Below are positions 1,140-52,793 of a DNA stretch of 64,000 nucleotides, piece by piece. The DNA is from Octopus sinensis (lineage: Eukaryota): positions 99,696,001 to 99,760,000 of the forward strand of contig NC_043005.1 of NCBI RefSeq assembly GCF_006345805.1, given 5' to 3'. The notes below the pieces were generated by a model. The model saw nothing but the letters and a program-made list of their open reading frames with translations, searched no databases and was not told the origin of the DNA. Position numbers and translations under genes: made by a program. Within the stretch, counting starts at the first letter, position 1. Each line of letters starts with the position of its first letter.

Positions 1140-1420
1140 TTGCACTCTCCTGTCTTTGAAAGAACTTTTTCTTCACCCATTCCCTTCTGGTCATTCAATA
1201 TGTGACCGCGTGTGTATTGTTGGCGATTTTTTTTTCCTCCATCTTCCTTTCCTTGGGTCTTTCCTTTTCCTATGTTTCTGATGAAGAGCTCCATTCGGAA
1301 CATTAAATCCTCCTTCTTTCTTTCCTTTCCTTTCCTGAGCATCCAATAACACTATATTTGTTCCATGTCTTCACATTGTTGTGTTTTCTCTTTGTGTTTT
1401 CATGTTTGGATTAACTATTT
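1140..1420 (+). mobile_element. Penelope-like terminal fragment with a degenerate hammerhead motif
   Basis: ttt-CTGATGA-a-gag..ttc-GGAA-CA-TT-aaa at 1275-1307, in a pyrimidine-rich segment between CA/TA microsatellites. Confidence 0.45.
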
Positions 1421-2080
1421 ATATGTATGTATATCTGTATATATGCATGTATGTACATATATATATATATATGTATATATATGTGTGTGAGTGTGTATAT
1501 ATAAATATATATATATATATATCATCACCATCATCATCCTTTAACACCTGTTATATGAATACATATACACACACATAAATAAAGATATATATATATATAT
1601 ACACATACATACATATATATACACACACACACACACATATATGCACACACACATACCACGACTTAATTATATTTTTCCATATATATTTCCTTTCTTATAA
1701 AGTGATGAATATACTAAGACACCTTTTGATAATAGTATAGGTTAACAAGTTTAAAAGCACAACTATAACAACTAGCATGGCCTTAAACTGCAGCAGAAGC
1801 ATAAAGAAGAAGGAGAGAGAGAGAGAGAGAGAGAGCCACAGGTGTGAATGGCACAAAAGTATCTTGTTGTACTTTCTATGGTACTGTACCCAAGCTGTTA
1901 AAGTCTGAAATGCAATTAGATGTGTCTTTTATGCCAATTTCTCATGTCTAACATTTATTTCATGTGTATTTCCTTCACTCCAAATTTGATTTCTATTTTT
2001 TACATTCCGTCTCTTTGTATTGAGTTCTTTATAAAAACAAACGAAAACTACATGAAAGGAAATAGCTGTATTTATTTTGT

Positions 2081-2308
2081 GGCAAGCTGGCAGAAACATT
2101 AGCATGCCAGGCAAACTGCTTAGCAGTATTTCGTCTGCCGCTACATTCTGAGTTCAAATTCTGCCGAGGTCGACTATGCCTTTCATCCTTTCGGGGTCGA
2201 TAAATTGAGTACCGGTTACACACTGGGGTCGATATAATCGACTTAATACCTATGTCTGTCCTTGTTTGCCCACTCTATGCTTAGCCCCTTGTGGGTAATA
2301 AAGAAATA
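2081..2308 (+). mobile_element. tRNA-derived SINE family A (Meta/MESC-like core)
   Basis: A-box-like TGGCAGAAACATTAGC, B-box GAGTTCAAATT and core GCCTTTCATCCTTTCGGGGTCGATAAA; 14-bp TSD TGTATTTATTTTGT at 2067-2080 and 2309-2322. Confidence 0.9.
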
Positions 2309-2587
2309 TGTATTTATTTTGTAGCTGTTCATTTTTACATTCATGTTTCATGCTAGCATAAGTTCGAAGAATATATTACGGAGCGATGGTTCCAATGCCA
2401 AATGTTCTTCTTACCACTTATCTGTTTTCCATGTAAGAGATGCTTTATTTCATACAACATCAAAGGAACAAAGCTTGTAGATGATTTGCCTACAGGAAAA
2501 GTGTCAACGACAATATAAGTCATTGCTCATCACTTTCAGAGAGTGCATATAAACACACACACACACACACTCACACACACATACAAC

Positions 2588-2911
2588 GGTAAAAACTCCC
2601 TTTGGTCACGAATGACCATGGGATTACACTTAGAAAGTTCCCCTCTGAGGAACATGTCTGGGCAAGGTTGTTTTTGTGGAAGACCACCCATGCATACCAG
2701 TCTCCCCTCTCCATGCCACCGATGTTGTCCAAGGGAAAGGCAAAGACCAATACAGCTTGGTACCAGTGGTGTTGCAACTGATTTCTACAACCAAGTAACT
2801 GGAGCAACACGGAATAAAGTGACTTGCTCAAGAGCACAACACACAGCCTGATCTGGGAGTTGAACTCACCACCTCATGATTGTGAGCCTGACGCACTCAC
2901 CACTGAGCCAT
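2588..2911 (-). mobile_element. tRNA-derived SINE family C
   Basis: Reverse complement matches the copies at 24251-24762 and 30000-30335 (head TGGCTCAGTGG..GAGTTCAA, body CTTGAGCAAG, tail CCCATGGTCATT). Confidence 0.85.
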
Positions 2912-2919
2912 AATTATAA

Positions 2920-2953
<34 letters not shown>

Positions 2954-2964
2954 GCATACATAGT

Positions 2965-3117
2965 GTGTTTCTTTTAGTTTCTATCTATGAAATTTATTCA
3001 CAAGGTTTTGCTTGGCCCCAGGGCTATAAGAGGAGACACTTGTACAAAATGCTGTGCAGGGGAACTGAAAATAAAACGATGTGGTTGGAAAGGAAAGTCC
3101 TCAATCACTCAGTCGTA
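2965..3117 (-). mobile_element. SINE family B head, diverged
   Basis: Degenerate match to the family B copies (CACAAGG.TTTG..CTATA..AGACACTTG..GAACTGAA..ATGTGGTTGG). Confidence 0.7.
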
Positions 3118-3146
3118 TCTATCCTTTTTTTTTATTTATTCCAAAC

Positions 3147-3364
3147 AAGGTGGCGAGCTGGCAGAAGCATTAGCATGCTGGGCAAAATGCTTAGCAGTAT
3201 TTCGTCTGCCGCTACGTTCCGAGTTCAAATTCTGCCGAGGTCGACTTTGCCTTTCATCCTTTCGGGGTCAACAAATTAAGTACCAGTTGCATACTGGGAG
3301 CAATCTAATCGACTGGACCCCTCCCCTAAAATTTCAGGCCTTGTGCCTAGAGCAGAAAAGATTT
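3147..3364 (+). mobile_element. SINE family A
   Basis: Full head and core; TTTATTCCAAAC is duplicated on both flanks. Confidence 0.9.
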
Positions 3365-3861
3365 TTTATTCCAAACTGATTGAACAATGCCCTGCTTTTT
3401 AAACCTCTCTTCTACATGGAGTTGATAAGAAATGGTTGGCTGGAATGGTTAAATAATTTGGTAACATTTTTACACCATATTTTGTTCTTTAATCATTTTG
3501 CATCAGTCAAAAAAGTTATTTGAGATATCTTCCTCCCGAAAATTTGCCAATTTAGAGATTAGACAGCTCATATTGGTGTGAGAAATTATGGGGGAAATAT
3601 TTCATGGAACTTGATGATATACAACTGAAATTATATTTAATAAACAGGAAACAATAAACAAATAAATAAAAATGTCCAAGAAATTGGAACCATTATGCAG
3701 AATGATCAGCAAAAATAGAATCTAATGTTGCAGTGGAATATGTTGTTTTGTTTTGGAAAATGTATACAGGAAAACGAGAAAAAGTCTATTGATAATTTCA
3801 TCAACAGCTTTCAAAGTCAGTTAGTTCTCTCATCTTGACATTCTCACCTTAAGAATATTAA

Positions 3862-3897
3862 GATAATAATAATAATGATGATGATGATGATGATGAT

Positions 3898-3932
<35 letters not shown>

Positions 3933-3994
3933 TAATAATAATGATAATAATAATAATAATGATAATGATAATAATGATAATAATAATAATAACA

Positions 3995-4058
<64 letters not shown>

Positions 4059-4098
4059 TAATAATAATAATAATGATAATAATAATAATAATAATATA
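3862..4098. repeat. (AAT)n/(ATG)n compound microsatellite
   Basis: Directly visible. Confidence 0.97.
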
Positions 4099-5519
4099 AA
4101 GAATGAGTAAAAGAAAAATGAAGATCTTAGCTAGAAATTTGCCGATAACTTTCTGTAAATAATCAATATTTTATCACCTGTGTAAACCTGTGCCATTACA
4201 CCTAAACTTGCCTAACAAGATTTAGTCATCTTCTTCTTATAATTCTTCCCCGCCTCTTATATAGCCACAAGAAGCAACTGAAATATTGCCTTACACAACA
4301 AACTGAGGTTACCACTGGTTGTTAGATTGCTGCATATTTTATAGATCTACTTGAAATTCCAGTGAATGTCTTCAAGTTACCAAAACTTTGCATCATCTGA
4401 TTAGTAAATGGGTTAAAGCGTTTGTCAAATTATTTGATTAATTTATCTATTTATTTGTCAAATTCGCTCTACACTGTCTAAAAGCAGTACAGACTGGTTT
4501 AACGGAAGCAAAAATATCAAACCCTTGTATAACCTGCTCATTTTCTTGTTGTGAATGTATAGTTCCTGAAAGTACAACACCAATAATTATTCACTACCAT
4601 ATGACCCGGTGTTGCCGTGTCTAGAGCTAGTGCTTGTTGTTCGTTGCTGGGTCGCAGTAAAAATTTCTCACTAAATCAAGAGCTAAGTTTCTTATCACAT
4701 TTCACCCTGGGTCAGTTTTGTTGTTTATGAGATAGTTGGAGCTTTTTATTAGAGTAATTAATAATCATTGGACTTTGGTTTTCACACCTGGAATGGTATA
4801 TACATGGAAAATTAGCAGGACTGTGCCCATGCCATTAATCAGACAAAATAGGAGGCAGAAGAAAGCAAAAAACTGGAATTTGGCAGAAAAATAACTTATG
4901 GGCATAAGGGGTCGGTTTATCAATTTTTTAATGGCTTTCTGGGAGACTGGGGAACTGAAATGATCTTCATGACCACCCTCAGACAGTTTTGAAAGCCCAT
5001 AGAAAATGCGAGCCTGTTATGTGAAAAACTGTGGATTTGTATAAAGGACACACAGATACACAGACGTTTTGCTGTTTATAGATATAGAGATTATTCGGAT
5101 ATTCAGTGCCTGAGATTCTTCATTCTTGAATAACCAAATTTTATGACTGAGCACTATCATATTTAACATTATGCATGTGAAACAATCACTACTAGCCAGA
5201 ATAGAACCCAGGATTACTGATATCATGGATTACAATGGAAATCAACAAATCTTTGCTGCAGACTCCATAAAGTACTAGGTCGAACACCTTGCAATATTTC
5301 TTCTGTGATCTGAGTTCAAATCCCAATAGAATCAATTTTGCCTCCCATCCTTTGAGAGTAATAAATATGTACCCTGTAGTTTTTTTGTCTCTTAGTGTTT
5401 CTTCTGAGATCTCCATTTCCAACACCACTGGGAGGTGGCCCTCAAAGTCGCTGGAAATGGAGATCTCCAGGTCCAAATTCTTGGACGGCTGCAAGACACA
5501 CAAACATATACATAAATAA

Positions 5520-5554
<35 letters not shown>

Positions 5555-5556
<2 letters not shown>

Positions 5557-5720
5557 ACAGGCTTCTTTCAGTTACCATCTACTAAATCCACTCACAAGAC
5601 TTTGGTCGGCCTGAGGCTATAGTAGAATATAGTTGCCCAAGGTACCACACAGTGGGACTGAACCCAGAACCATGTGGTTGGTAAGCAAGCTACTTACCAC
5701 ACAGCCACTCCTGCACCTGT

Positions 5721-5753
<33 letters not shown>

Positions 5754-5927
5754 CAACAGGCTTCTTTCAGTTACCATCTACTAAATCCACTCACAAGACT
5801 TTGGTCGGCCTGAGGCTATAGTAGAATATAGTTGCCCAAGGTACCACACAGTGGGACTGAACCCAGAACCATGTGGTTGGTAAGCAAGCTACTTACCACA
5901 CAGCCACTCCTGCACCTGTTATATATA

Positions 5928-5990
<63 letters not shown>

Positions 5991-6188
5991 ATATATATAT
6001 ATTATATATATATATACATATATACGACAGGCTTCTTTCAGTTTCCGTCTACCAAATCCACTCACAAGGCTTTGGTCGGCCCAAGGCTATAGTAGAAGAC
6101 ACTTGCCCAAGGTGCGAAACAGTGGGATTGAACCCAGAACCATGTGGTTGGTAAGCAAGCTACATACCACACAGCCACTCCTACGCCT
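5555..6188 (-). mobile_element. Three tandem SINE family B heads separated by (TA)n; the first two form a 199-bp duplication
   Basis: Copies start at about 5555, 5754 and 6024. Copies 1 and 2 share private variants (GAATATAGTTG, CACAAGACTTTG) that copy 3 lacks. Confidence 0.9.
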
Positions 6189-6848
6189 ATATATATATAT
6201 ATAAATATATATATATATAATTCATATAAATATAGTGTACATTTAATCACATAAGAGGTATCCATCATAGGATTCCTTTCATGCTATATATATATATAAA
6301 TCAAAATGAGGGTGAAAAATTGGATATTAATTTGATAACATCAATTTTAACACCAGTGGTCTAGCATATAAAAAAAAACTGAGATTCAGCAAATAGTATT
6401 TCATACATAAACATAAGTGGGGATTTTTTAAACTTCTAGGTGGAAACCCTTATGCTAGAAGAAGATCCGCTATGGTCTTAACCACTAAGAATTGTTCTCC
6501 AGAAAAATTTAGCACACCAGAAACATAAGCAAGCAAGACAAATGAAAAGTAACAAATATATATATATAATATACTCTTGAGTTCTTGAGTTTGTAGTTTG
6601 TTCAGAAGAGTAAAATTCTTAGCCCCATCAATCTTTATAGTCCTTTGCAGTCTTCTTGAAGACATGGTTTATAAATTTGATTATAAAATTGTAAGCTGTA
6701 AACTTCTCAATTCTACCTCTGACAGTGAACATCCTAATACGCCACCTTCCCCATGATTCACAAGGCATAAAACAGAATCTGACAGAGAAACATTGTTAAA
6801 CAAAAGCTGTATCTTGAGTAGAATTCCCTACAGGATTAGGTGATTAAT

Positions 6849-7045
6849 AATGGTTTCAAATTTTGGCACAAGGCCTGCAATTTCAAGGGAGTGGGTAAAT
6901 TGATTACACTGACTCCAGTTTTATTAACCCCAAAATGATGAAAGGCAAAGCTGACCTTAGTGGAATTTGAACTCACAGTGTAAAGATGGACAAAATTCCA
7001 CTGAATATGTTACCTGGTGCGCTAACGTTCTGCCAGTTTGCCAAT
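6849..7045 (-). mobile_element. SINE family A, diverged
   Basis: Reverse-complement core GATGAAAGGCAAAG..GGAATTTGAACTC. Confidence 0.8.
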
Positions 7046-7184
7046 AATGGAAAGAGTATTAATGTCACAACACAATACATCTATCAACACAGACAGCAAA
7101 ACTAGACACAACTTGAAGCCACTTCCTCACAGCTGAAAGTAAAAGCCACAAATTTAGCTCCTTTGGTATATTACATCAAAGATA

Positions 7185-7333
7185 AGCATAGGAGTGGCTG
7201 TGTGGTAAGTAGCTTGCTTACCAGTCCCACTGCATCGCACCTTGGGCAGGTGTCTTCTACTATAGCCTTGGGCTGACCAAAGCCTTGTGAGTGGATTTGG
7301 TAGACGGAAACTGAAAGAAGCCTGTCGTATATA

Positions 7334-7380
<47 letters not shown>

Positions 7381-7389
7381 TATATATAC

Positions 7390-7432
<43 letters not shown>

Positions 7433-7620
7433 CGTCTGTGTTTGTCCCCCCCAACATCGCTTGACAACTGATGCTGGTGTGTTTACGTCCCCATAACTTA
7501 GTGGTTCGGCAAAAATGACCGATAGAATAAGTACTAGGCTTACAAAGAAGAAGTCCTGGGGTCAATATGCTCGACTAAAGGCAGTGCTCCAGCATGACTG
7601 AAACAAGTAAAAGAGTAAAG
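7185..7620 (+). mobile_element. SINE family B, near full length with an internal TA/TG microsatellite (resembles octopus OR-type SINEs)
   Basis: Head GGAGTGGCTGTGTGGTAAG, CORE-like CCTTGGGCAGGTGTC, internal microsatellite, tail GACTGAAACAAGTAAAAGAG. Confidence 0.88.
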
Positions 7621-8075
7621 AAAGTGCAGGACAAGGTTTGGTGTTTTCAATTGTTTTGATGGAAGATTAACAATTTTGCATGCAAGTCTCCTAATTCCAT
7701 GCCCCCAATGTATGCTCTATGGATATGGCATGGCCATTGCAGTGTAACACAGTTGATGTTGCAGATGTTGCCGTCAGAATACACAAAGATGGATCAGATA
7801 TTGCAAGACAACCGATTCTGTAGGATGTACTCAAAGTTCTGCCAGTCCATCACCTCCAAGAGAATGAAAGGCTAAGTTGACCTTGGAGTATAAAAACAAA
7901 TACCACAAGGCATTCTATCTCATACTCTGATGACTCTGCCAACTCACTTGTGCACGCATGTGTGTGTGTGTGTACACTCATGCATGAAGTCTATTTTGGT
8001 ATTGTAACTGTAAAAACCACTCGTGTTTATATGGAATGCATAAAACAAGTGATACAAAAAGAACTTCTGCTGTTA

Positions 8076-8470
8076 TCTCTCTCTATATATAAAGCTGAAG
8101 TTGTCTGTGTGTGGCAGGTTTGGTAGCCTTCAACTAACACTATCTCCTCTGAGACCCTGCGACACAAGTTGACCAAAATTGCGAGTATGATAGAAGAAGG
8201 CTTGCTCTTTATTCCGTAGGAGAAAAAATTCAAATCGGACTATGTTAAGACCAAAAATTATTTACATAAAAAAGGTGCTTTTTTTCTATGAAAATCCCTA
8301 TTTTTTATGATTTTTTTTACTGCTGTGTTGCCACTTTTCGGTGAATTTCGACCAGAAAAATGTTCACTTAAAGAGAATAACAAGCTACATAATGCCAAAT
8401 TTTTACTTTTCAAAAATTCCAATTCTAAAGGGTTGAAACAAACCCGAGCAACGCCAGACGATACAGCTAG
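8076..8470 (+). mobile_element. Non-autonomous Helitron
   Basis: Begins with TC after host A (8075). Ends with CTAG (8467-8470) before host T, preceded by a decayed GC hairpin CCCGAGCAACGCCAGAC. No TSD. Confidence 0.8.
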
Positions 8471-8519
8471 TTTTGTGATAAACACAACTGATGGATCATT
8501 TATGTTCTGTTAACAAGTA

Positions 8520-8639
8520 CCACTACGCTCTGTAAAGTGCTTGGCATTAGGAAGGGCATCGAACTATAGAAACGAAACCAAAACTGCCAGTTCTTGTCAA
8601 GTCGTCCAACCATTGCCAGCATGGAAGAACCAGCATTAA

Positions 8640-8675
<36 letters not shown>
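8520..8675 (+). mobile_element. 5'-truncated RTE 3' tail
   Basis: TTGGCATTAGGAAGGGCATC..GCCAGCATGGAA..TTAAA(TGA)n, homologous to 780-936. Confidence 0.8.
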
Positions 8676-10110: not shown

Positions 10111-10111
10111 A

Positions 10112-10578: not shown

Positions 10579-10584
10579 GCTTAA

Positions 10585-16301: not shown

Positions 16302-16944
16302 GGGAGACAGCCTAAAAAAAAAAGGGAGACAGCCTAAAAAAATAAAGGGAGACAGCCTAAAAAATAAAGGGAGACAGCCTAAAAAATAAAGGGAGACAGC
16401 CTAAAAAAAAAGGGAGACAGCCTAAAAAAAAAGGGAGACAGCCTAAAAAAAAAGGGGGACAGCCTAAAAAAAAAGGGAGACAGCCTAAAAAAAAAAAGGG
16501 AGACAGCCTAAAAAAAAGGGGGACAGCCTAAAAAAAAAGGGAGACAGCCTAAAAAATAAAGGGAGACAGCCTAAAAAGTAAAGGGAGACAGCCTAAAAAA
16601 ATAAAGGGAGACAGCCTAAAAATTAAAGGGAGACAGCCTAAAAAAAAAGGGAGACAGCCTAAAAGAAAAAGGGAGACAGCCTAAAAAAAAAGGGAGACAG
16701 CCTAAAAAAAATGGGAGACAGCCTAAAAAAAAAAGGGGGACAGCCTAAAAAAAAAAGGGAGACAGCCTAAAAAATAAAGGGAGACAGCCTAAAAAATAAA
16801 GGGAGACAGCCTAAAAAAATAAAGGGAGACAGCCTAAAAATTAAAGGGAGACAGCCTAAAAAAAAGGGAGACAGCCTAAAAAAATAAAGGGAGACAGCCT
16901 AAAAAATAAAGGGAGACAGCCTAAAAATTAAAGGGAGACAGCCT
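16302..16944. repeat. Minisatellite, about 30 copies of GGGAGACAGCCT(A)8-11
   Basis: Near-invariant 12-bp core plus an A-tract; period about 21-22 bp. Confidence 0.97.
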
Positions 16945-17138
16945 ATCTCTTTCTCTGTATCCAACTTCAGTTTTTTAGATTTGTATAAATTGCTGAAATA
17001 GATATTTTTCAATAACAAAAAGTAGAATAGAGAGGGTATGTTAAAATCATTGGCTATAAATATATGATCACAAGTTCAAGTCTTACTGGATATATTGATT
17101 TTGTAGCTTTGAGGAAAATACATGAACAATGAATTATA

Positions 17139-17660
17139 CCATAAATTCTCGAATATAATCTGCATATTTTTCCCCAAATTTAAAGGTCAAAATCCCTAGT
17201 GCATACTTTATACGAGGTTACAAAGGAAAAATATTTTCTAAGCAATGTCCAAGTCTCTATTTGCTGTCTGGCAATGTTTATTCAGACACATTTTGTGATG
17301 TCGGGCATGAAAATGCCTTAAGGTAAGCCTGGAAGCAATGAAGTCATAAAGGGATCATCCATAACTTGCAGTAAGCAACATTTATTAAAATAAAAGTATC
17401 CAGAACACAGAATAACATGTAACAAAAACAATTTGCAAACATATTTACATTCCCATATAACAGTTAAGAACATCACCATTATTGTATTACGCATGCACGG
17501 AAGTGTTTGTTCAACTAGGTGCTGCTGGTTTAATTACACACAACTCAAGTTAGAGAAGGAGTGCGTATTATACACAAGGCTTTGGTTTTTCAGAGGTACA
17601 GCCCCCTAAAAATCCTCTGCGTATTATATGCAAGGGTGGACTATACTCGAAGATTTACGG
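17139..17660 (+). mobile_element. Tc1/mariner-superfamily (pogo/Tc2-like) MITE, copy 1
   Basis: TA|CCATAAATTCTCGAATATAATC ... GACTATACTCGAAGATTTACGG|TA; about 25-bp TIRs, TA TSD; homologous to 20714-21220. Confidence 0.88.
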
Positions 17661-17674
17661 TACTTGACTAGGGA

Positions 17675-20421: not shown

Positions 20422-20713
20422 TTAATATACTGAAGTGATAGTTTATAATTGGTGTTGTTGTCATTTGACCCAGACAGACAGACAGACAGACCTTTTATCA
20501 AAGACATTTCAGCTGTAAACATCTCATCTTTTCTTTGAGTACAGTGTAGTTGAATTTAATGGTAGTATCTAATGTGATGGGGATTTAGCTTCTGTTTCTG
20601 GCAAATTGAGAAATTTCAAAGAGGTTCTTTCATTGGCATCTCATAATGACCATAATTATAGTCAGAATCTTCTGTTATTAGTGTTAGTCTTTTTCCTTTT
20701 TCTTTTTATGATA

Positions 20714-21220
20714 CCGTAAATCCTCGAGTAAAATCCACATTTTTTCCCCAAAATTTAAAGGTCAAAATCCCTAGTGCGTATTATATATGAGGTTAAAAGT
20801 GAAAAATATTTTCTAAGCAATGTCTGAGTCTCCATTTGCTGTCCGGCAATGTTTATTCAGACGCATTTTGTGATGTCAGGTGCTAATCCTGAAAGTAATG
20901 AAGTCTTAAAAGAATCATCCATAACTTGCAGGAAGCAACATTTATTAAAATAAAAGTATCCAGAACACAGAATAACATGTAACAAAAACAATTTGCAAAC
21001 ATATTTACATTCCCATATAACAGTTAAGAACATTACCATTATTGTATTACGAATGCATGGAAGTGTTTGTTCGACTAGGTGGTGCTGGATTAATTACACA
21101 CGACTCAAGTTAGAGAAGGAGTACGAATTATACACAAGGTTTAGGTTTTTCAGAGGTACAGCCCCCTAAAAATCCCCTGTGTATTATACTCAAAGGCGGA
21201 CTATACTCGAAGATTTACAG
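20714..21220 (+). mobile_element. pogo/Tc2-like MITE, copy 2
   Basis: TA|CCGTAAATCCTCGAGTA ... TACTCGAAGATTTACAG|TA. Confidence 0.88.
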
Positions 21221-21423
21221 TAATCTAAATTAGGGCTATGGATCGGCGGAAGTGATTTTTGAAGTATCACTGATCTTTATGTTCTGACTTCAAATCATGA
21301 CTGGATTGTTTTGACTTTTCTCCTTCTGAAGTTGATAAAATACCAGCTAAATAATTGGATCAATATAACTTGCTAAGAATGCCCTTCCCTCTGCCAAATT
21401 TGTGACCATATGTCTATAAATAA

Positions 21424-30335: not shown

Positions 30336-31189
30336 CATTTACCTACATGTATTTTGGTCATTTATCTCTTTTGTTCAATGATGAGGATTCACTAGTTTTA
30401 TCAACTGAATAACTTGCTGCTGAATTAATACTTAAGTGGCAGAGTATTCCACAGTCATGTGTATTCTTAATAGAATTTACTGGCAGAATCAGTGTGTCAC
30501 AATGGGTACCTTTTAAGATACAGGTATAATCCATTTGATGGTCATCTGTACAATTTCCATGTACGCAGTTTCATCCCAATGTATGAGTCAGTCCAAGGTC
30601 ATAGACAAAACCCAGGGCCTTGAGGCTGCCAAAGAAACTTCTTAACAATTTGGGAGTTATTCAGTTACCTACACAAATAGAGCGTTCAGAGAATGTAAAT
30701 ATATTCCCATATTAATCTTCTTTTACTTATTGCTTGAGAGAAACTGATAAATATAAGATAATATAATTATATGTGTGTGAGTGTGAGTACATGAAGACAT
30801 ACATACATACATACATATATGTACATACACACACACACACACACACACACATATATTTAGAAGGTTGGTTGTTATGACCACTCAGAGAGTGACCATTGGT
30901 TTCACACGTATAAAGTGCCTAGCTATATAGGTGACTCATTTGACATAAATAAAATTACAGAAAGAAAGTGTTCCTTGTTGCAACAGAAATTTTTCCTCTG
31001 GCAAAACTACATCTGTCCAATGAAATGGATGTGGAAACAGATTCGATAAACCTTTTGAATTCAAATAATCTATGATTTTCTTCCTTTCAAATCGGCGTCA
31101 ATGAATTTATTTTGGGGGTAATTGGTTAAAAAAAATTCTCCAACCCTTGGCATATATGAATTACTGTACGTATTTTTGTATTTTACGTA

Positions 31190-31306
31190 TGTTTTTACGT
31201 ATTTTTGTATTCTTATTCGTGTTATCATTATTGTTTTTACGTATTTTTGTATTCTTATTCGTGTTATCATTATTGTTTTTACGTGTTTTTGTATTTTTAT
31301 TCGTGT
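31190..31306. repeat. 42-bp tandem repeat (about 2.7 copies) within an unclassified repeat at about 31070-31556
   Basis: Unit TGTTTTTACGTATTTTTGTATTCTTATTCGTGTTATCATTAT. Confidence 0.85.
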
Positions 31307-31556
31307 AATATCGTCTGGTTTTCCATCCTTGTTTTGTATACATTCGAGGCTTTCTCCCAAGGAATCTAATGTGCTTAGCTTAGATTTTCCTTTGGGGCTG
31401 GCCACATCGGAGCAATCTCAAGATTAATCAGCCGAAATTGCGAAGATGATCCGGTTCTTGACTGAAGATTGAAGGCTTCGAATGTCTCGTCTGTGTTTTT
31501 TGTATCGTCTTCTAAATGTTTCATGTTCTTGTCCCAGTTTGTATTTTTTTACATTT

Positions 31557-31558
31557 AC

Positions 31559-31590
<32 letters not shown>

Positions 31591-32092: not shown

Positions 32093-32094
32093 TA

Positions 32095-32648
32095 CTAATA
32101 TAGGATGAAGTTTTTTCTTCTACAGAAAAAAATTCCATCAAGACATGTGGCAGCATATTAAAATACCTTTACGGTTAAAATTATAAACAACTTATAAGTA
32201 AGGGCTAAAGAAAAATTATTTCAAAGCCAATATGCTGATAACAGACTATTAAATCGTCAATTTCCACATATAATCTACTCGCTACAGCAAAAATTGAACT
32301 GAAGTCGGGCAAACTGGCTGTTAGAATATTTAAATTTCGTTATCTCTATATTGAATCAATTTCGGAATTAATTTCATAAAAGATTTATTCGTCTTCAGTA
32401 GAGCTTACGAGAGAATATAAATAAGATACTTACATGCGCCCGTGGAAAAAGCCGAAGCAAAAAACATGAGTACATTTAAGTACCCCAGTTATATCTAATG
32501 AAATTTAAATATTCTAACGGCCAGTTTGCCCGACTTCAGTTCGATTTTTGCTGTAGCGAGTAGATTATATGTGAAAATTGACGATTTAATAGTCTGTTAT
32601 CAGCATATTGGCTTTGAAATAATTTTTCTTTAGCCCTTACTTATAAGT

Positions 32649-32653
<5 letters not shown>
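32095..32653 (-). mobile_element. Penelope-like terminal element with 158-bp inverted arms (32185-32342 and 32496-32653)
   Basis: Arms are reverse complements with about 4 mismatches; the spacer holds a hammerhead motif; (TA)n on both sides. Confidence 0.7.
32343..32404 (-). ncRNA. Type I hammerhead ribozyme motif
   Basis: Minus strand: CTCTA-CTGAAGA-cgaat..attcc-GAAA-TTG att CAA-TA-TAGAG. Stem I is 5/5; the first stem II pair is mismatched. Confidence 0.7.
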
Positions 32654-35828: not shown

Positions 35829-35910
35829 TTCCCCTGATGAAGGAGTTATTAGCGTGATGCACCCTAGTGCTTTAAACACAATAATATACCCCTGAAATGG
35901 CCATAGGGAA
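35829..35910 (+). ncRNA. Type I hammerhead ribozyme motif, intact core
   Basis: TTCCC-CTGATGA-aggag(t)tatta..taata(ta)cccct-GAAA-T GGCC A-TA-GGGAA; palindromic stem III; AUA cleavage triplet. Confidence 0.75.
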
Positions 35911-37519: not shown

Positions 37520-37695
37520 ATCATAAAAAAATACCTTAGGAATGAGAACCCAGGTTCGAAATTTCCCCAAGACACCTGAAGAAGATGGCAGGTATATCAG
37601 CCAAAATGTTATGCTAACAACAAACAAGATGAGGACAAATATCCGACAAATATAAATAATGTACATAATTCTTCATCTCTTAAATATAGAACAAC
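37520..37695 (+). mobile_element. Short Penelope-like repeat with a heavily decayed hammerhead motif
   Basis: acac-CTGAAGA-a..tcagcc-AAAA-TG-TT at 37572-37610; an intact motif would need several back-mutations. Confidence 0.35.
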
Positions 37696-41326: not shown

Positions 41327-41870
41327 TAAGAGAGCAACATATGCTATTGAAGTGATGTTGGATTGCAAATATACAAAGCTCAATATGCCCATCTAAATAC
41401 CCATCTGATAAGGGTACTCTAAGTACACGCATCACAGTCATATGTGGGTGGCACGGTGACCTCATTTCAAGACAAACAGTTCATGATGTTGCAGTTGGGG
41501 TCCAGTTAAAATTTCTTTCAGGTCAAGTAGCCATCTACTGAAAAGGTCCCTGAATAAGGGTTGTTAAGAATGATGAATAAAACCCTCATGTATCCAAGGT
41601 GAATTATTCGAACCTCAAAGAATCCCTCTAAAAACATGGCTTTATGATGCGCCCCAACTACTTCTGTTTGTGATCAAAGATGCACATATCTTCAGGCACT
41701 AAAGGACATGCTCAATTGGTTAAGGTCAAGCAACTAACAAGCAAATCTGCAGTATTGAACAGACTATTTACTGTAGCTCATATTTTACATGAAGACAAAA
41801 CCTGTACATGATAACACTTCCAATCAATTAAGATCAGAGAGTCACTGCCTGGTAGTGTGTCAGGACATAT
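41327..41870 (-). mobile_element. Non-coding (TAA)n-embedded interspersed repeat; other copies at 42335-42405 and 53836-54325
   Basis: Reverse complement of 53836-54325; bounded by ATT/TAA runs. Confidence 0.75.
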
Positions 41871-42912: not shown

Positions 42913-42933
42913 ATTATTATTATTATTATTATT

Positions 42934-44487
42934 CAGTAGTTTTATTTTTATAGCGTGCTTTCACTTCACTACCGAGCGCAGCTCTGTGTGCCTTGGGTAT
43001 GTGCTGTGATTTGTTGTGATGCTCTGATGGTTATTGTATGGAAAGTGTTCTGCGTAGGATGTGTGCAGTGCCTAGTAGTGCAATTTTCTGTATGTTATAT
43101 GTGTTTGTAAGTCCTGGTGTTTTTGTTATGTATTTGTCTGAATATTTTTTTATCATGCCTAATGCACCTACTATGATAGGAATTGTTTCTGTTTTCAGAT
43201 TCCACATTCTAGTTACCTCTATTTCCAGGTCTTTGTATTTGAGAGTTTCTCCATTTCTTTTAGAGACACGTTGTCATCAGCCGGTATTGATACATCAATT
43301 AGAAAGCATTTTTTTCCTTCATGATCTCTGACAACTATATCTGGTCTGTTGGCCTTAATTTCTCTATCTGTGTGTATCAGCATATCCCAGAGTATGGTTG
43401 CTTTCTCGTTTTCTGTGACCTTTTCTGGTGTGTGCCTATACCATCTTTTTCTGTTGTTATTCCATAATGTTGGCATAGCTTCCAATGTATGTAGGTTCCA
43501 ACTCTGTCATGTCTGTGAATATATCCTTCTTAGCCAGGACTGGGCAGCTAGAGATAATATGATTTATTGTTTCTTGTCCATCTCCACATATTCTGCAGTT
43601 ACTTGTAATATTTCTTTTCATTACATGTTTTTGGTAATTTCTGGTGGGGAGGCTTTGGTCTTGTGCTGCAATTAAAAATCCCTCTGTTTCTGCTTTGAGT
43701 CCTGAGCTTCTCAACCATTGCTGGGATTTTTCTTTGTCTATTTCTTTTGCATTTAGTTTAGTCCAGTATTTGCCATGAAGGGGCTTTTCTTGCCATCGTT
43801 TTATCATGGTTCGTTGCTGTTCTACTTTTAGTTTGGATTTCATTTGTTTTATAGCTTTTGTTGTTTCTTCATCTTCTTCTTCGTCTTCTTCTTCTTCTTC
43901 TTCTTCTTCATGTTTATTAGGTGGTATGATTTCTTGTTTGTATTTGTCAGCTTCCTTAAATACTGAGAACAGTTTTTTGTTTTGCTCGTGTTTTGCCGCT
44001 ATCTGGATCAGTTTTCCTTCCTTCTGAAGTAGATATTTTTGCAGTCCTATGGTGGTTATTTTATAGTAGTTTTCCAGCTGTATAAGGTCTCTACCACCTT
44101 CTATACGTTGTATATATAGTCTTTCTATGTCAGATTTTGGGTGATGCATCCTAGATCCTGTCATTATTTTTCTTGTTTTCCTATCTATTTTGGTCAGTTC
44201 ATTTCGTGTCCAGTTAAGGATATTGTAGCTGTAACTTATAACTGGGACAGCTAAAGTTTTGATACCTATTATCTTGTTTTTAGCATTGAGCTCTGTTTTT
44301 AGTATTGATCTAACTCGTCTATAATATTCTTTTTTATTTTCTCTTTCATTTGTGTGTGTTGTGTCTTATCTAATTCATGGATTCCTAAGTATTTGTAAGT
44401 TTGGCTTTGGTCTAATTCTTTTATTTCATTGGTTTTATCTAGTGTGATGTTGTTACTCTTAACTAGTTTTCCTCTTTTCATGGTTAC

Positions 44488-44488: not shown

Positions 44489-44540
<52 letters not shown>

Positions 44541-44557
44541 ATTATTACAATTACATA

Positions 44558-44910: not shown

Positions 44911-45093
44911 AAAGCATTGCTCAACCCTAGTATGGAAAGTCTTTGCTAATGTGCATTGCAGAGAAGTTGCACTCAGAACCCTGGGCTGTAGTGCAAACCT
45001 TCTCACAAAGCTTTAACATCCTTTCTTGTAAAATTTTCTTTTATTGGTTCCTATATTTAGTTTGAATTAAAATTTCCTATACAGACTGATGGG

Positions 45094-45488
45094 TACTCTT
45101 TTACTTGTTTCAGTCATTTGACTGTGGCCATGCTGGAGCACCGTCTTTAGTTGAGCAAATCAACCCCAGGACTTATTCTTTGTAAGCCTAGTACTTATTC
45201 TATCTGTCTCTTTTGCCTAACCACTAAGTTACAGAGACATAAACACACCAACATCAATCGTTAAGCAATGTTGAGGGGAGAAACACAGACACACAAACAT
45301 ACACACACACACATATATATATAAGATGGGCTTCTTTCAGTTTCCATCTACCAAATCCACTCATAAGGCTTTGGTTGGCTTGAGGCTATAGTAGAAGACA
45401 CTTGCCCAAGGTGCCATGTAGTGGGACTGAACCCGGAATCATGTGGTTTGTAAACAAGCTACTTACCACACAGCCACTCCCATGCCTA
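45094..45488 (-). mobile_element. SINE family B, full length
   Basis: Same organisation as 22352-22745. Confidence 0.92.
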
Positions 45489-45496
45489 TGGAAAGT

Positions 45497-45556
45497 GATG
45501 AACAACCTTAATCAATTTTTGAACCTTATTGGGTTCTCATCAGAGGTGTCTACATC
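45497..45556 (-). ncRNA. Minimal type I hammerhead motif with G12 mutated to A
   Basis: Minus strand: ACCT-CTGATGA-GAACC caataa GGTTC-AAAA-ATTGAT-TA-AGGT, with outer GATG/CATC pairing. Confidence 0.65.
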
Positions 45557-46084
45557 ATTCTACTCGTAGAAGGCAATTTTACTCGTAGAAGGCAATTTGA
45601 ATACACCCTAACCTCTTGCATTTTTTTTTTTTAAATACAATCATTAAGAATTGAAAATGAATTCCAAAGACAAATTTGAAGCATTTTTACTTTCATCACA
45701 CTGAAAATTCTGAGAGAAAATATTTCAATTTTATGAAAGAACATATAATTTCTGATGTTAGTAGCTGTGAAAATGAAATTAAAAAAAAAAAAGAAAAACA
45801 TTTGTATAAATAGATCAATCAATGCCATACTATTGATATTACCAAAATTTTTAGTGTCACTCGAAAGGAGACAAGACAAATATACTTTTCATTGCAAGTA
45901 ACAGCACACCATTAATAAGGAATTATGGGTGTGAATGAAAACTTGTAAAAATTGTTCCAAATAGAAGTTGTATGAGTCAATGAAGGCAGCACTTACCATA
46001 TAAACTTATGTATGGAACATAACAGTGACTTCTAGTCTTTCTGTGTGTTTATGTTGTATCTCTTCTTTTCCTCAGAACTGAATC

Positions 46085-46440
46085 GATTTGACATTTAATA
46101 CATGACGTATGTGGTCTCAACAAGATGCTACGACTGACCAGAGAGAAAGAGCTTTCACGGATGTCATTCAAGATATGTTTAATGAGAATGTCATTTCCCA
46201 GTACAATGACAGGCCATGGCCGGCTTGGTTGCGTAATATTTCAGCACGTGTTTATTTCCTTTTGTGCTTCTTCAATGAGAATGTGTTTGTCAACAAACTG
46301 TGCATGCAGGAGGAATTTAAAGCTTCTCCGCATCGAGGAATTCAAGACATGGTGTGAGATGCAATAAAGAACTCCAAGCTTAGGCTACAAGTATACTTAT
46401 GGAATAGTTATTTGGATGATGGTATTTCCAAGACTAAATG
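46085..46440 (+). pseudogene. Tc1/mariner DD41D (rosa-like) transposase C-terminal relic
   Basis: MWSQQDATT..DMFNENVISQYNDRPWPAWLRNISARVYFLLCFFNENVFVNK aligns to the WFQQDGA..WPxRSPDLxPxDFFLWGYLKxKVY motif; 41 residues lie between the second D and the decayed third D position. Confidence 0.75.
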
Positions 46441-46567
46441 AACAGTTACGTGTATATTACATCATTTTACACATTTACACAATAACATTTGGTAATGTCC
46501 TACTATGCCAGCTTTATTTTACACTTTTAATAACCTGACAGATTTATGGATAAATCTATAAAATATG

Positions 46568-46794
46568 TTCTGTTGTGTCTGGGGAGAGTCATTTTGTTTT
46601 GTGCCTTATAAAGTAACACACTTACCGGTAAAATTTCCACTTATTCTTATTTTTATTTTCCTAAAATTTTCGTTGCATCTTGCAACCTTTTCAATAGTTT
46701 TGACTCTCAATAAGGAATAAGTGGAAAGTTGACCGGTGAGTGTGTTAAATTATAAGGCACAAAAAGAAAACGACTCTCCCCAGACACAACAGAA
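46568..46794 (-). mobile_element. Penelope-like terminal element with ~85-bp inverted arms (46568-46651 and 46709-46794)
   Basis: Arms are imperfect reverse complements; the spacer holds a hammerhead-like motif. Confidence 0.6.
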
Positions 46795-48089
46795 TATGCT
46801 TCAATACACGAACTCACATAAAGATCTTGCAAACCAAATCCAAAAACGAAACTATACCTTGACTATCTGCATTATCTATTTGTCTGGCTGTCTGACTGGT
46901 TGTCTGTCTATCTGTCTAAATATATCTTATTATCTTGCACACATACACGCACAAACCACATATATATCCGAGAACAAATTAAACAGGAGATTTAGAGAAA
47001 CTTTATTATAACATCATAAATTATGTAATCTTAACATATGTTTTACTTTCCTATTCTAGAGTGTTGTGCAGCAATTATTACTTGCACAGTTGCATAATCA
47101 CCTTGAGACACCTGATCTTCAAAGGATAACAGTAATTTAATCCAGATTCATTTACCAATCTCAGTTGGTAGGCAAAACTAAACGAGAACTGCAGTTCTTA
47201 TTTAGCTCTACTTACGCCTGTTCCTGTCCCTTTATCTTACTTTAACTTTCAATGTGGCACAAAGCTACTTCCATCAATCCTACATTCCAACTGTGTCAAG
47301 GGAAAAGCTTACAATTTTGAAATACTTTTTACAGATTTCTATAGAATGGTTTGATGATTCTGAGTTGAGCAAAGTTTTATGGATGAACTGGTTTGAAGTT
47401 GTTTTGCACTTAAAAAGAAAGACTTGATCTTAAGAAACTAGCGTTTCAGAATGGAATTTAGGAATACAATTTGTGATAAAGTGTCTTAACTTCTGTTACA
47501 ACATTGTACCACATGGGACTGCATTGGTCAGTCAGTCCTGAAGCGCATGATATCACGAAAATCTTACTAACCAAGTTTACATTCATTTCAAAGAAAGTGA
47601 AGAATTCTCTCATGCAATGGAGAAAAGTCCAACTCTTGCTTCCATCATTGATTTTTGTTCTGTAATAGAATCATTGTATGAACTGGCTTTTGACTAGGAA
47701 CGTTTCCACTGGAGTGTCAAGATTTTGTATATGTGTGTTTCTGTGGTTCTAAAGATAATGTGCATCTCTTAAATTGTTTGTTGTTTTGGTTCAGAAATAT
47801 TTGCGATATTAGTGGTGCTTTGTCTGTTGCTTTGGAATGGCAAAGAGAAATGTTTTACAATATTTCATTAATTAATGCCCAGTTAATTTGGCATTTGTAA
47901 GTCTTTGATAGTAAGGTGAAATTAAGAGAAAAACATCTTAATAACTAAACCTTGAAGATACTGCCAAAAAATTGGCCACAATATGATGACTAGAAGCATA
48001 AAAGAATAATGGTGTATTTTTGTGTACATTTGTATATTCAAATTCATGTAAAAGATATGCATACATGTGAAAAAACACATGTGAATATG

Positions 48090-48137
<48 letters not shown>

Positions 48138-48175
48138 ACTATCTATCTATCTAACTATCTATCTATTTATCTATC
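48090..48175. repeat. (TATC)n microsatellite
   Basis: Directly visible. Confidence 0.95.
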
Positions 48176-48303
48176 AGTCAAAATACACACACACACACAC
48201 ACACAGACATGTATATGTGCATATGCTCACATAGATATGTATCTTGTGGTGTTTGAGCACTCATTTTCATCATTTGACATTTACCTCTCCTTGTTTTTTT
48301 CTG

Positions 48304-48346
48304 TGTCCTTTTCTGTAGAAGAGCATAGGCTCGAAAAGTAAAAGAC
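48304..48346 (+). ncRNA. Minimal hammerhead-like motif (variant core CUGUAGA) in a short repeat at about 48240-48435
   Basis: tttt-CTGTAGA-a-GAGC atag GCTC-GAAA-AG-TA-aaag. Confidence 0.5.
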
Positions 48347-48909
48347 TTTTTCAATTCCTGTGTGTTATACTAATACATCTGTTTGTTTTATACACCACCT
48401 GTCTTTGTCTTTTGTTTTTTCCGCAAACTCTCCCTATATATATATATAAATATATGCACACACACCAGCATATTTGTATGTATGCATACACAAATGAATA
48501 CACATATCTATATACATATATTTACTTACACGCATGCACACACACACATATATATATACATATGCATATAGGCACACAAATATGCATATCTCTCTATCTA
48601 TACACACACACACACACGTACAGTGCGTTAAGGTCAAATGCATAAATATTAAAGTGCTCAAACTCATACAAGCTTATATATTTATCCACACACCTTGCTT
48701 TCTAACATATAGTGTATATGGATGTATATTAGAGTATGAAAGAAATAAAACAACATCAAGCAGTGACACCTCCTTGTATAATAATTTTTAAATGATGAAT
48801 CTATTTCATCATAACTATATGTCACAGTTGAGATAATACCAAGTGGAACACTTCAGAAGTTTACTTCTTAGAAAATCATATTATATAACTACACTATCAC
48901 CATCACAAC

Positions 48910-48951
<42 letters not shown>

Positions 48952-49098
48952 AATTTTAATGTCTGCTGTCTGCACACGCACACACATACATGTATACATG
49001 TGTGCATATATATACATGTATATATATGTGTGTGTGTATGATAATATGATAAAATAGTAATCTAGATTGACATGTGTATGAATAAATGTTTATACATC

Positions 49099-49140
<42 letters not shown>

Positions 49141-51289
49141 TATTCTAATATGTGTGAATATGTGTATGTAAATGTATATGTATGTTTATATATATATATA
49201 TATATATATTTACATATACATATGTATGTCTGTGTATATATATATGTACATCTCTATCTCACTCTCTATATACACACACACACATGCATAAATATATATG
49301 CATAGAAGCATGCATGTGTATAATTATGTGTGTATATGCATATGTGAGTGACAAGGCCCATTCACATGCATACGCACCTACATATGTAAATGCCACACAA
49401 AAGCAATATTGTGAAAAAGAAAGCAAGAAACGTAGGAAGATAACAAAGCAGAAGAGACAAATATTATGGAGTCTGGAATATGTCAAGTTTTCCTTTTTTC
49501 ATGCATTAGTTTTTGATAATTTTGTAGGAGAAAACAGCAGCAAATAACAACAACAACAACTGTAATAATAATAATAGTAATAATAATAATAATGATAATA
49601 ATAATAATAGTAATAATTTTTCTGCTAGCTTTTGTAAAGATTCAGACATTTTTGTGACAAGCCCTCCCAAGTTACCATAGTAAGTTCTTCACCGTTTTGT
49701 TAAGGTGTATCTGTGAATAATTTTCTATCAGTATACACTCACATGTACGCACACATACAGACACACACACATGTAAGCACATATTTGCTTTTTCTTTTGT
49801 TTTGTTTATTTAGAATTTTAAAATGTTAGAAATTTGAAAAATATTTATATAAATGTACACAAAGATTACTAAAACATGCTCAAATATACTACTTCTACTA
49901 CGTCGATGACGATGGCAGCAAAGAAGAAGAAGGAGGAGAAGGAGGGGGAGGAAGAAGAAGAAAATGAAGAAGTAGAAAAAGAAGGGGAGGAGGAGGAGGA
50001 TTATATACAAATAAAGGGAAATCATGTAGAAAATGTTTAAACTAAATATAAGTTAGCCAATTTTAGAATGATCAGCGCTGTCAAATTTAAACCAGGAGAG
50101 ATTTGATTACAGGTGGTTGTAGAAAAGAAAGACAATCACGGAAAACAGGAGTAGGGAGTGGCTGAATATACCCTACCACCACCACCACCACCACCACTTC
50201 CCCACTGAAACAACAAGAAGAAATGAAGAATATCGTAAAAAATATCAGAAGGAAATGAAGGAGGAAGTACAAGATGGAGAATGTTTCCTAAAAGTTTTGT
50301 CATATTCTCCATACAATGAACGGAATCAGGGTTGGCTGTAAGCAAATATCTTTTCTATTCTCAAAGGTTTTACACATTTTGAAAAAGGAAACTTAACACA
50401 GAAATATTGACATATATACACAGAAATGATATATTTTCTCTGTTTTCCTACATATTAAATACCTTTCATAAATGGACACAGAAATATCTAAGAGCTATTT
50501 TCTGTTTTATTGTTTTGTTTTATTTCTGAAAGTTGGCAGATATTGGAGAAGAAAAGTAAAAGACTTATCTGTTTATTTTTTGTATTTTTTATGTTGCATT
50601 TTTTTATTGGGTGTAAAAAATATCTGACACAATGTAAATGTTGGTATATTTCTGTGTCAGAATTAATACAGGAAAGAAGAGAAGGACTTTAGTTTCAATG
50701 AAAATGGTTTCTTTAAATAACAGAACAAAATCATAAAGGAAAAAAAAATACTCATAAATTGTACAGGAAACATATATTTTAAATATTTTTTTACTACTTA
50801 TTTATTCAACTGTTCTTGTATTGCTTCATAAAAGTGAATTTTACAAAATTCTTTTTTCAAATTTGTAAACAATAATAATGATACAAAACAAAATATTAAA
50901 CATATGATGATGATGAGAACAACAACAACAACAACAATAATGTTAAGAGTCATAATGATATTTCTGTTGGCCACAAGGGCCCAAAAAGGCTGAGATGATA
51001 TCAAACAACACTGGCATGTTGATGAACTCCAAAAGTGTGCTACCAATGATATACAAGAAACACTGCTTTTAGATTACATCATTTAGTATCTGATACAGAA
51101 AAGAAATATTTATCCTGAATACAGGGAAATCAGGGCCTTATATAATCAGGAAAATATTATAAAGTATTCATTCTATGATCAAGAAAAATATCAATAAAAG
51201 AATGGCGAAAAATTAACCCTGATAACCATTAAACACGAAATAAAAATTTAGAAATGCGTTTTCTGTCTTGGAGGAAGCCAATGAATATA

Positions 51290-51885
51290 AAACAAAGTAT
51301 GAAATGACAGAATGTTATGAAGAAGAATTAGGACCAATAACAGAAATTGTGAGAAAGCTACAAAAAACAAGCATACAATATGTCATACTAAAGGAATGGC
51401 AAGAAAACCCACTGCATGTCCAATACCTGGGGATAAAATGAGTGGGTGGATGTGGAGAATAAAATTTGTAATTGAGGCCAAGAAATACAAGATGGAAAAA
51501 GGTAAAACTGAAGGATTCTTGAGTGCAGCACAAGATCAAAAGCTTCCCATCAGAAACTATCAAAAGCACATAATGAAGCTGATTATATGGAAATGGGAAG
51601 AAACAATTAGCTGTAATGAGTTTTGAAGCTTTTGTCAGCATTAGGAAATACCATCAGAAATGAGATGGAATAGGTGTACACCAAAAATTGAGAAAATAGT
51701 CATCCTCTGAGCTTTGCTAATTCACATAGACAAGAAAGTCAAAGTTAATTAACTAGACATTAATGTCAAAGTCTAATGGGAGAAGAAATTCTACTTAATA
51801 TATTAGTAAAAAATGACAATGTATCTCTCACAGAAATGGAGAAATTATCCAAATCTGTTAATTAAGATAAGTCATATGTGGCACG
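51290..51885 (+). mobile_element. Degenerate R4/Dong LINE fragment
   Basis: KTEGFLSAAQDQKLPIRNYQKHIMK is homologous to ETEGFLIAAQDQSLPTRNYQKHVMK in 42934-44488. Confidence 0.75.
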
Positions 51886-51887
51886 AG

Positions 51888-52410
51888 TGTCATCATCATC
51901 ATCATCATCATTTAACGTCCACTTTCCGTGCTAGCATGGGTTGGACGATTTGACTGTGGGTTGGCGAACCAGATGGCTGCACCAGGCTCCAGTCTGATCT
52001 GGCAGAGTTTCTACAGCTGGATGCCCTTCCTAACGCCAACCACTCCAAGAGTGTAGTGGGTGCTTTTGCATGCCACCAGCACAAAGGCCAGTCAGATGGT
52101 ACTGGCAATGGCCATGCTCAAATGGTGTTTTTTACGTGCCACCTGCACAGGATCCAGTGCAGCGGCACTAGCAACAACCTCACTCGAATGTTTTTTCATG
52201 TGACACCGGCACAAGTGCCAGTACGGTGACACTGGTAATGATCATGCTTGAATGGTGCTTTTTAGGTGCCACTGGCACGGAAGCCAGTCAGCTGCTCTGG
52301 CAACGATCACACTCGGATGGTGTTCTTAGCGCTCCACTAGCACAGATGCCAGTCATCGAATTTGATTTCAACTTCAATTTTACTTGCCTCAACGGGTCTT
52401 TGCAAGCAGT
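51888..52410 (-). mobile_element. RTE 3'UTR and tail
   Basis: Reverse complement of about 545-936, including the (CAT)n tail and the repeated GGTG.TTTTTACGTGCCAC motifs. Confidence 0.88.
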
Positions 52411-52699
52411 GTGAAAACAGAAACAATCTTCATAATAATAGGTGTCTTTAGAATAATAAAAAACAAACATGGAGACATATATATATATATATATATATAT
52501 AAGTAGGTGAATGAATTATCCTATGTTTATTCTCAGCATGAAAAATTCGTTTAACCGAAACCTGGGTAGCAAATTCACTTCAGAAAACACGGTTGAAGCG
52601 ACCTGTCAAGGGTAGAAACTCTGGGTTCATGTGTAGAAATTTGTGTGTTGTATATGAATAAATGAAAGAATGGAGTCGAACGAAGATGTTAACAAAATT

Positions 52700-52793
52700 C
52701 CTTTACTCTCGACACATGTTTCGAAGACAGTATATTTTCATTCCGAAGGAATAAAGGGTGCATTATGCAATCTTCTCATCAGAAAAGAAAAGG
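52700..52793 (-). ncRNA. Type I hammerhead ribozyme, canonical intact core, in a Penelope-like segment at about 52500-53260
   Basis: Minus strand: CCTTTTCTTTT-CTGATGA-GAAGA..TCTTC-GAAA-C ATGT G-TC-GAGAGTAAAGG; GUC triplet; stem I is 10/11 pairs including G-U. Confidence 0.82.

Follow-up and report, generated by a model that had tools for sequence, protein, structure and literature searches.

Five hammerhead motifs in 64 kb of the Octopus sinensis genome: probable decayed 3' end-pieces of unrelated Penelope-like elements

Introduction

Self-cleaving hammerhead motifs are a known component of Penelope-like retroelements (PLEs), and two described groups of such elements stand closest to the motifs reported here from a 64-kb stretch of the Octopus sinensis genome (NC_043005.1; the whole stretch is referred to below as the window). 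For metazoan PLEs, dispersed and heterogeneous single minimal hammerhead ribozymes (min-HHRs), as well as a U3-A8 form of the core, have been published; their activity in vitro is low, monomers (a single minimal hammerhead) do not cleave, and a role for cleavage in the PLE cycle is only proposed (PMC4209133). In Hydra-clade hammerheads, helix III measures 3-4 bp around a short centre, and the motif lies near the 3' end of elements that prefer (TA)n targets; Hydra-1_Obim of Octopus bimaculoides, which bears a hammerhead and targets (TA)n, is one of them (PMC8557442).

In a coral genome, type I motifs number more than 6,000 and fall into 16 families (PMC7229834), so that many hammerhead families per genome are usual. 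Among cephalopods, 235 Rfam hammerheads are reported for the giant squid (PMC6962438), and PLEs with recently active families for O. vulgaris (PMC13282606). In the open literature we found no hammerhead survey of octopus repeats, no paper on the particular families described here, and nothing on U3A8 or loop II insertion as we phrased them.

We analyzed eight sites in the window that a preliminary description had listed as hammerheads of several unrelated Penelope-type families. We determined that five of them are real hammerhead motifs, and we consider these five to be, probably, decayed 3' end-pieces of several unrelated PLE families.

Results

Five of eight motifs lie far above chance

Each of the eight listed stretches is present at the position and on the strand given for it, although only five stand out from chance. 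The sites, named below by their first coordinate, and the larger units to which some belong are as follows:

1275..1307, plus strand: weak hammerhead-like motif with a changed A13, a broken stem II and a broken palindrome; its T-rich tail reaches a TA-rich run near 1416; score 18.9
32093..32653, minus strand: head-to-head unit of 561 nt between two (TA)n runs; inverted tail copy, 91-nt spacer, hammerhead, tail and 92-nt one-sided extension
32343..32404, minus strand: hammerhead; intact core, stem II flanked by one additional base on either side, palindromic helix III of 5 bp around a 1-nt centre (Hydra-clade layout); score 29.4
35829..35910, plus strand: hammerhead; intact core, 5-bp stem I, perfect 8-nt helix III palindrome, long loop II insert; score 34.9
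37530..37571, plus strand: partial hammerhead-like stretch directly 5' of motif 37572; stem II and GAAA, 5' core broken; stem II like that of 45497
37572..37610, plus strand: weak hammerhead-like motif; CpG-type changes at G12 and in the palindrome, damaged stem II; score 17.3
45497..45556, minus strand: decayed copy of a high-copy hammerhead family; G12 and helix III palindrome restored in most other copies; score 31.5
46563..46850, minus strand: head-to-head unit formed by a short repeat of very high copy and consisting of an inverted copy of the tail, the hammerhead and the tail; self-match 46565-46797 at 77%
46661..46697, minus strand: minimal hammerhead; U3-A8 core as in the family majority, extra base at 9a, 2-nt palindrome; score 29.0
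48304..48346, plus strand: weak hammerhead-like motif; A6 changed, palindrome broken; 89-nt tail ending at (TA)n; score 21.1
52700..52793, minus strand: hammerhead; intact core, 5-6-bp stem II, near-palindromic helix III, long loop II insert; 200-nt tail ending at (TA)n; score 31.0

Motif bases carry the customary hammerhead numbering. The scores are CpG-aware and were tested against 100 local dinucleotide shuffles of the window, which has a G+C content of 34%, 115 tandem-repeat rows and numerous dispersed repeats. Five motifs (32343, 35829, 45497, 46661 and 52700) score between 29.0 and 34.9, the next-best site in the window reaches 23.1, and a shuffled window holds on average 0.01 sites scoring at least 28 (maximum 1). 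These five, far above the local shuffles, are real hammerhead motifs, and all are type I hammerheads with a self-complementary helix III. The core (CUGANGA or U3-A8, GAAA, UH) is intact in four of the eight window copies (32343, 35829, 52700 and, as U3-A8, 46661); that of 45497 is complete in the family majority but not in the window copy, and those of 1275, 37572 and 48304 are not intact.

Other searches gave a similar picture. By a first additive score, four motifs exceeded nearly all of 60 shuffles and 45497 was missed. A strict descriptor matched 35829 and 52700 (two matches, against a shuffle mean of 0.02), and permitting core variants added 46661 and 45497 (four matches, against a mean of 0.43; four were reached in none of 100 shuffles). 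The loose pattern of the preliminary description returned five matches against a shuffle mean of 1.56, and at least five were found in 2 of 100 shuffles.

By score, motifs 1275, 37572 and 48304 are indistinguishable from chance: a shuffled window contains about one site at 21.1, four to seven at 18.9 and more than seven at 17.3. The preliminary description had set aside 1275 and 37572 as too decayed, a judgment that the scores bear out and that extends to 48304, which is outscored by four window sites absent from the original list. It is nevertheless rather unlikely, in our view, that the three are chance look-alikes in AT-rich DNA. The likeness between 1275 and 48304 is not significant (31.5 versus 24.7 +/- 4.2; tails p=0.19), which fits such an origin, as do the scores. 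However, all three share with the published consensus (PMC4209133) the extra 9a base and the G10.1-C11.1 pair, TA is reached about 110 nt from 1275 and 89 nt from 48304, and the two core-side changes at 37572 are of CpG type, the same decay as at 45497. Motif 45497 resembles the broken motif at 37530-37571 (p ~0.002, post hoc among about 24 comparisons), and the latter and 37572 are possibly a relic tandem pair.

Two motifs are conserved across high-copy repeat families

Contigs of four public runs were placed on 45445-46950 at 80% likeness, a stretch that covers two of the eight motifs, 45497 and 46661. Depth, which is not a copy number, was used only as a sign of high copy. In run X1, where single-copy depth is 47.6, depth reaches 70,696 over 45496-45546 (about 1,500 times single-copy) and 1.93 million over 46669-46719 (about 40,000 times); both motifs sit in high-copy repeats.

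The window copy of 45497 is without G12 and has a wobble in helix III. At position 45520 the letter that restores G12 makes up 82-88% of the depth (118-125 contigs), and at 45514 the letter that gives a perfect helix III palindrome makes up 68-80% (112-117 contigs; runs X1, X2 and X7 in both cases). Both deviating window letters are thus minority letters, and both are CpG-type transitions. Because most copies restore G12 and the palindrome, the family has a complete hammerhead that the window copy has lost, which is not expected of a chance motif. Among the family contigs of 46661, neither half of the core has a variant that reaches 25%, which makes U3-A8 the norm of the family. U3-A8 covariation is natural and active (PMC3088659) and is also a form of PLE hammerhead (PMC4209133). 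The motif is therefore conserved across a multi-copy family in both of the families examined.

These data also bear on the proposal, made in the preliminary description, that the motifs belong to non-autonomous families or retrozymes. The data do not establish this claim as made, since there are no head-to-tail arrays and the 5'-truncated ends of autonomous elements would look no different. A narrower version, which need not exclude PLE end-pieces, is possible but the less favored account: some families, 46661 above all, would consist of short elements that are non-autonomous, have master copies of their own starting just 5' of the hammerhead, and use PLE enzymes. Among the 15 joints listed (of 339) are other copies of 46661 that likewise switch to the head-to-head arrangement 0-11 nt 5' of stem I; none of the 24 loose ends listed runs on upstream; depth is very high over about 300 nt; and PLE-derived non-autonomous retrozymes have been proposed (10.64898/2026.07.22.740005). 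Conversely, the window copy of 46661 itself ends there and longer copies may hide among 1,569 further loose ends, the window contains no tandem arrays, and at 45497 depth falls stepwise upstream (70,696; 10,658; 449; 156), as 5' truncation would give.

Searches of public collections with single patterns returned 29 viral loci for a stem II pattern, and four metagenome loci and no genome loci for the tail pattern of 48304; no locus from either search matched the window beyond 25-32 nt.

Head-to-head units, tails and (TA)n runs

Two of the motifs lie in head-to-head units. In the unit at 32093-32653, the arms (32185-32342 and 32496-32653) are 158 nt long and 97% identical, and 92 nt more of tail (32093-32184) follow on one side only. 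In both window units the inverted arms repeat the tail, beginning about 6 and about 12 nt beyond the predicted cut site. PLE insertions are known to show an inverted 5'-truncated copy and a one-sided extension (PMC8557442). We also considered a general rule that places the start of inverted arms at the cut site; it fits both window units, but we do not put it forward, as the junctions in other copies of 46661 vary over tens of bases.

Arms of this length and identity, with no coding capacity, could instead suggest DNA foldback elements (miniature inverted-repeat transposable elements, MITEs) whose hammerhead-like spacers are accidental. We consider this improbable: the arms are not terminal on both sides, given the extra tail at 32093-32184; they begin beside the predicted cut site of the motif; head-to-head junctions lie at varying places among other 46661 copies (among the 15 of 339 joints listed); and both spacers contain motifs far above chance.

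A TA-abutting unit at 61947-62110 has an 82-nt inverted self-match at 95% and no scoring hammerhead; it is possibly a PLE-type stub that stopped before the motif.

Downstream of five of the eight motifs, a (TA)5 run occurs within 260 nt, compared with 15% of random places. One of these runs belongs to a short interspersed nuclear element (SINE) beside 45497, which leaves four of eight motifs whose own tail ends at (TA)n (P=0.022, with a 260-nt threshold that was picked after the fact). Upstream, a (TA)5 run was found for only two of the eight. The claim that most motifs adjoin TA microsatellites thus applies to about half of them, the nearest (TA)5 run being 7.7 kb from 37572 and 1.3 kb from 46661, and the suggested preference for (TA)n sites, already published for Hydra-clade elements (PMC8557442), finds modest support.

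The SINE-like high-copy repeat (45094-45489) starts 7 nt past the 3' end of motif 45497, and the window copy of this motif is therefore without a tail of its own. Elsewhere, a non-SINE stretch at 30860-31560 (plus strand) ends at a long (TA)n run and contains a 42-nt tandem repeat and hammerhead-like words below scoring.

When the remaining seven tails were compared (45497 being left out because of the abutting SINE), none of 21 pairs was alike at p<0.05 (lowest 0.054); as the tails are unrelated, the families are separate. No tandem array overlaps any motif, and no motif-bearing stretch recurs in the window.

A loop II insert common to two motifs

The preliminary description had held that the stems share no sequence, which agrees with the tails; an exception is found in the loop II inserts of 35829 and 52700. 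These inserts of about 45 nt are alike (p ~0.002, post hoc among about 24 comparisons): at 35841-35893 (plus strand) and 52723-52775 (minus strand), two common words surround a variable hairpin in motifs that are otherwise unrelated. The two words co-occur in the window only at these sites, from which the pattern itself was built. In public collections the words matched 115 viral loci, none of which has core halves on both sides, and a modeled two-sequence consensus fold of 35829 and 52700 gave neither a hammerhead nor a convincing common domain.

It is conceivable, although we would give it little weight, that 35829 and 52700 belong to a hammerhead subtype not yet described: two Penelope-like families that have diverged would both retain a common structured domain, about 45 nt long, grafted on helix II, and the same genome would contain a U3-A8 family whose amplification is of the order of 10^4-fold. 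Such a loop II domain could act as a protein-binding or tertiary-contact module that switches on an otherwise weak PLE ribozyme. A common insert would matter if family alignments bear it out, and a U3-A8 family amplified to this extent, if truly so, would offer natural variation enough to map the selected features of a PLE hammerhead.

Other features of the window

Among 249 reading frames (at least 55 aa, low-complexity frames filtered out), Pfam returned a single match above cut-off, zf-RVT, in a fragment of a non-long terminal repeat (non-LTR) retrotransposon at 43460-44365; a protein search with this frame returned invertebrate retrotransposon proteins. The broken fragment as a whole (43034-44487, minus strand), which we take to be Dong/R4-like, abuts a (TAA)20 run at its upstream end and has a smaller relative near 51321-51623. 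The window also contains (i) two copies (17133-17662 and 20708-21222; 88%) of a 520-nt, MITE-like element with terminal inverted repeats; (ii) a 22-nt minisatellite of about 30 copies (16302-16945); and (iii) two copies, 74% identical and in opposite orientation, of an unclassified 500-nt repeat (41350-41857 and 53839-54314).

Discussion

Origin of the motifs

Four observations lead us to regard the five hammerheads as probable PLE remnants: anatomy above chance in five of eight motifs, a core conserved in both families examined, two head-to-head units, and tails that end at (TA)n in four of eight. Membership among the PLEs is likely, although proof would take an open reading frame (ORF). The claim of several unrelated Penelope-type families is thereby supported at the family level for two of the eight motifs and by anatomy for three more, while the remaining three stay outside it.

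A course of events can be proposed that takes parentage, dimer cleavage, target-primed copying from the 3' end, early stops with inversion, and CpG decay from published PLE biology. In the RNA of a parent element, two motif copies, one in each terminal repeat, would pair via the palindromic helix III and excise a unit-length RNA from the transcript. The parental reverse transcriptase (RT) and GIY-YIG endonuclease would then copy this RNA into a nicked (TA)n site, starting at the 3' end of the RNA. In most cases copying would halt early, often with the addition of an inverted partial copy, and leave a stub of 100-500 nt that consists of hammerhead and tail and that would afterwards decay, mostly at CpG sites. 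Lone stubs such as those in the window would be expected to cut little or not at all.

A number of results weigh against this account. No Penelope RT or GIY-YIG domain was found by Pfam in the 249 window reading frames, so that no parent is linked to the motifs, and pattern (regex) searches of the window gave no convincing PLE coding signature. The preliminary description had likewise recognized no ORF and had suggested a search for such parents, which in the window yielded none; this absence would be expected if the copies are stubs. All scoring schemes were written after the motifs had been seen, which flatters the scores. Published-table descriptors at their published limits match nothing in the window, whether the min-HHR descriptor with H at 9a or the Hydra layout with a loop II of at most 15 nt. 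If any base is accepted at 9a, the published descriptor matches 46661, and if loop II is widened to 50 nt, 35829, 52700 and 32343 are matched (shuffle mean 0.010; three in none of 300 shuffles), 45497 joining only if A is accepted at position 12 as well; these limits, too, were widened after the window was seen. Rfam, another of the suggested checks, fared no better: none of the five rescanned motifs reached the cut-off, the one weak match being Hammerhead_1 (RF00163) at 52705-52788, within motif 52700 (14.1 bits, E 1.3, cut-off 34 bits), and no hammerhead is among the 150 of 266 Rfam matches listed for the whole window, which are otherwise microsatellite and hairpin noise. In predicted monomer folds, stems I and II form in three of eight motifs (45497, 46661 and 48304), and predicted dimer folds are mostly not double hammerheads, although folding is not decisive. 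The motif of Hydra-1_Obim is not in the window (three matches versus 2.17 expected; the window sequences differ). The sole common difference within 46661, at 46677 (72-74%), reduces stem II from six to five pairs, so that the family majority letter costs a pair and adds none. Finally, only two of the eight families were compared with other copies. The suggested shuffle comparison, for its part, separated five motifs from dinucleotide-shuffled sequence and left three at shuffle frequency.

That the host retains the motifs to cut or regulate a transcript spanning the region is very improbable. Every core base is kept in four window copies (32343, 35829, 46661 as U3-A8, and 52700), as retention would have it, but the copies are single, lie on both strands and have drifted from the family majority where compared, no host exon was recognized by Pfam among the 249 frames, and published single min-HHRs do not cleave (PMC4209133). 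The suggestion that intact copies could cut a host transcript finds no support either, given the single copies and the published lack of cleavage by lone min-HHRs.

As elements of this kind are already known, a further example is of modest value. The locus does show at least five unrelated hammerhead-bearing repeats in 64 kb, all missed by Rfam, and two of the families are abundant enough for covariation analysis and a clean test of the function of PLE hammerheads. The families reported here may already be contained in the O. vulgaris repeat library (PMC13282606, Zenodo).

Comparison with described systems

Non-LTR retrozymes (PMC7229834; Li et al. 2026, 10.64898/2026.07.22.740005) are likewise short, non-coding repeats with type I hammerheads, can occur as solo monomers, and are proposed to derive from PLE terminal repeats. 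Unlike them, the window shows no head-to-tail array and no recognized canonical contacts between loop I and loop II; membership among the retrozymes fails on tandem organization.

The metazoan PLE min-HHRs (Cervera and De la Pena 2014, PMC4209133) have in common with the window motifs the type I layout, the extra base at 9a, the G10.1-C11.1 pair and a palindrome in place of helix III, and they too occur as many unrelated families per genome, mostly in single dispersed copies. The seven-base U3-A8 core of 46661 is that of Schistosoma_mansoni(4), the U3-A8 form being known from the Cercyon elements of S. mansoni. Position 9a of 46661 is G, as against H in the published consensus. The 46661 family seems far more abundant, by a rough, depth-based estimate, than the approximately 1,300 U3-A8 matches in S. 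mansoni. No cephalopod term occurs in one supplement file of this study. By analogy, 46661, as well as the three weak motifs if they are real, would work like these min-HHRs.

Motifs 32343, 35829, 45497 and 52700 would, again by analogy, work like the Hydra-clade hammerheads (Craig et al. 2021, PMC8557442), although a clade call needs an ORF. Loop II is 18-45 nt long in three window motifs versus 3-10 nt in the Hydra table, long loops being given in the published table only for two spikemoss PLE-X elements. In other respects the likeness is close: all four motifs have 3-5 bp in helix III around a centre of 0-3 nt, 32343 has the extra base on both sides of stem II, and the inverted 5'-truncated copy is also seen in the window, whose motifs may likewise share the position near the 3' end and the (TA)n targets.

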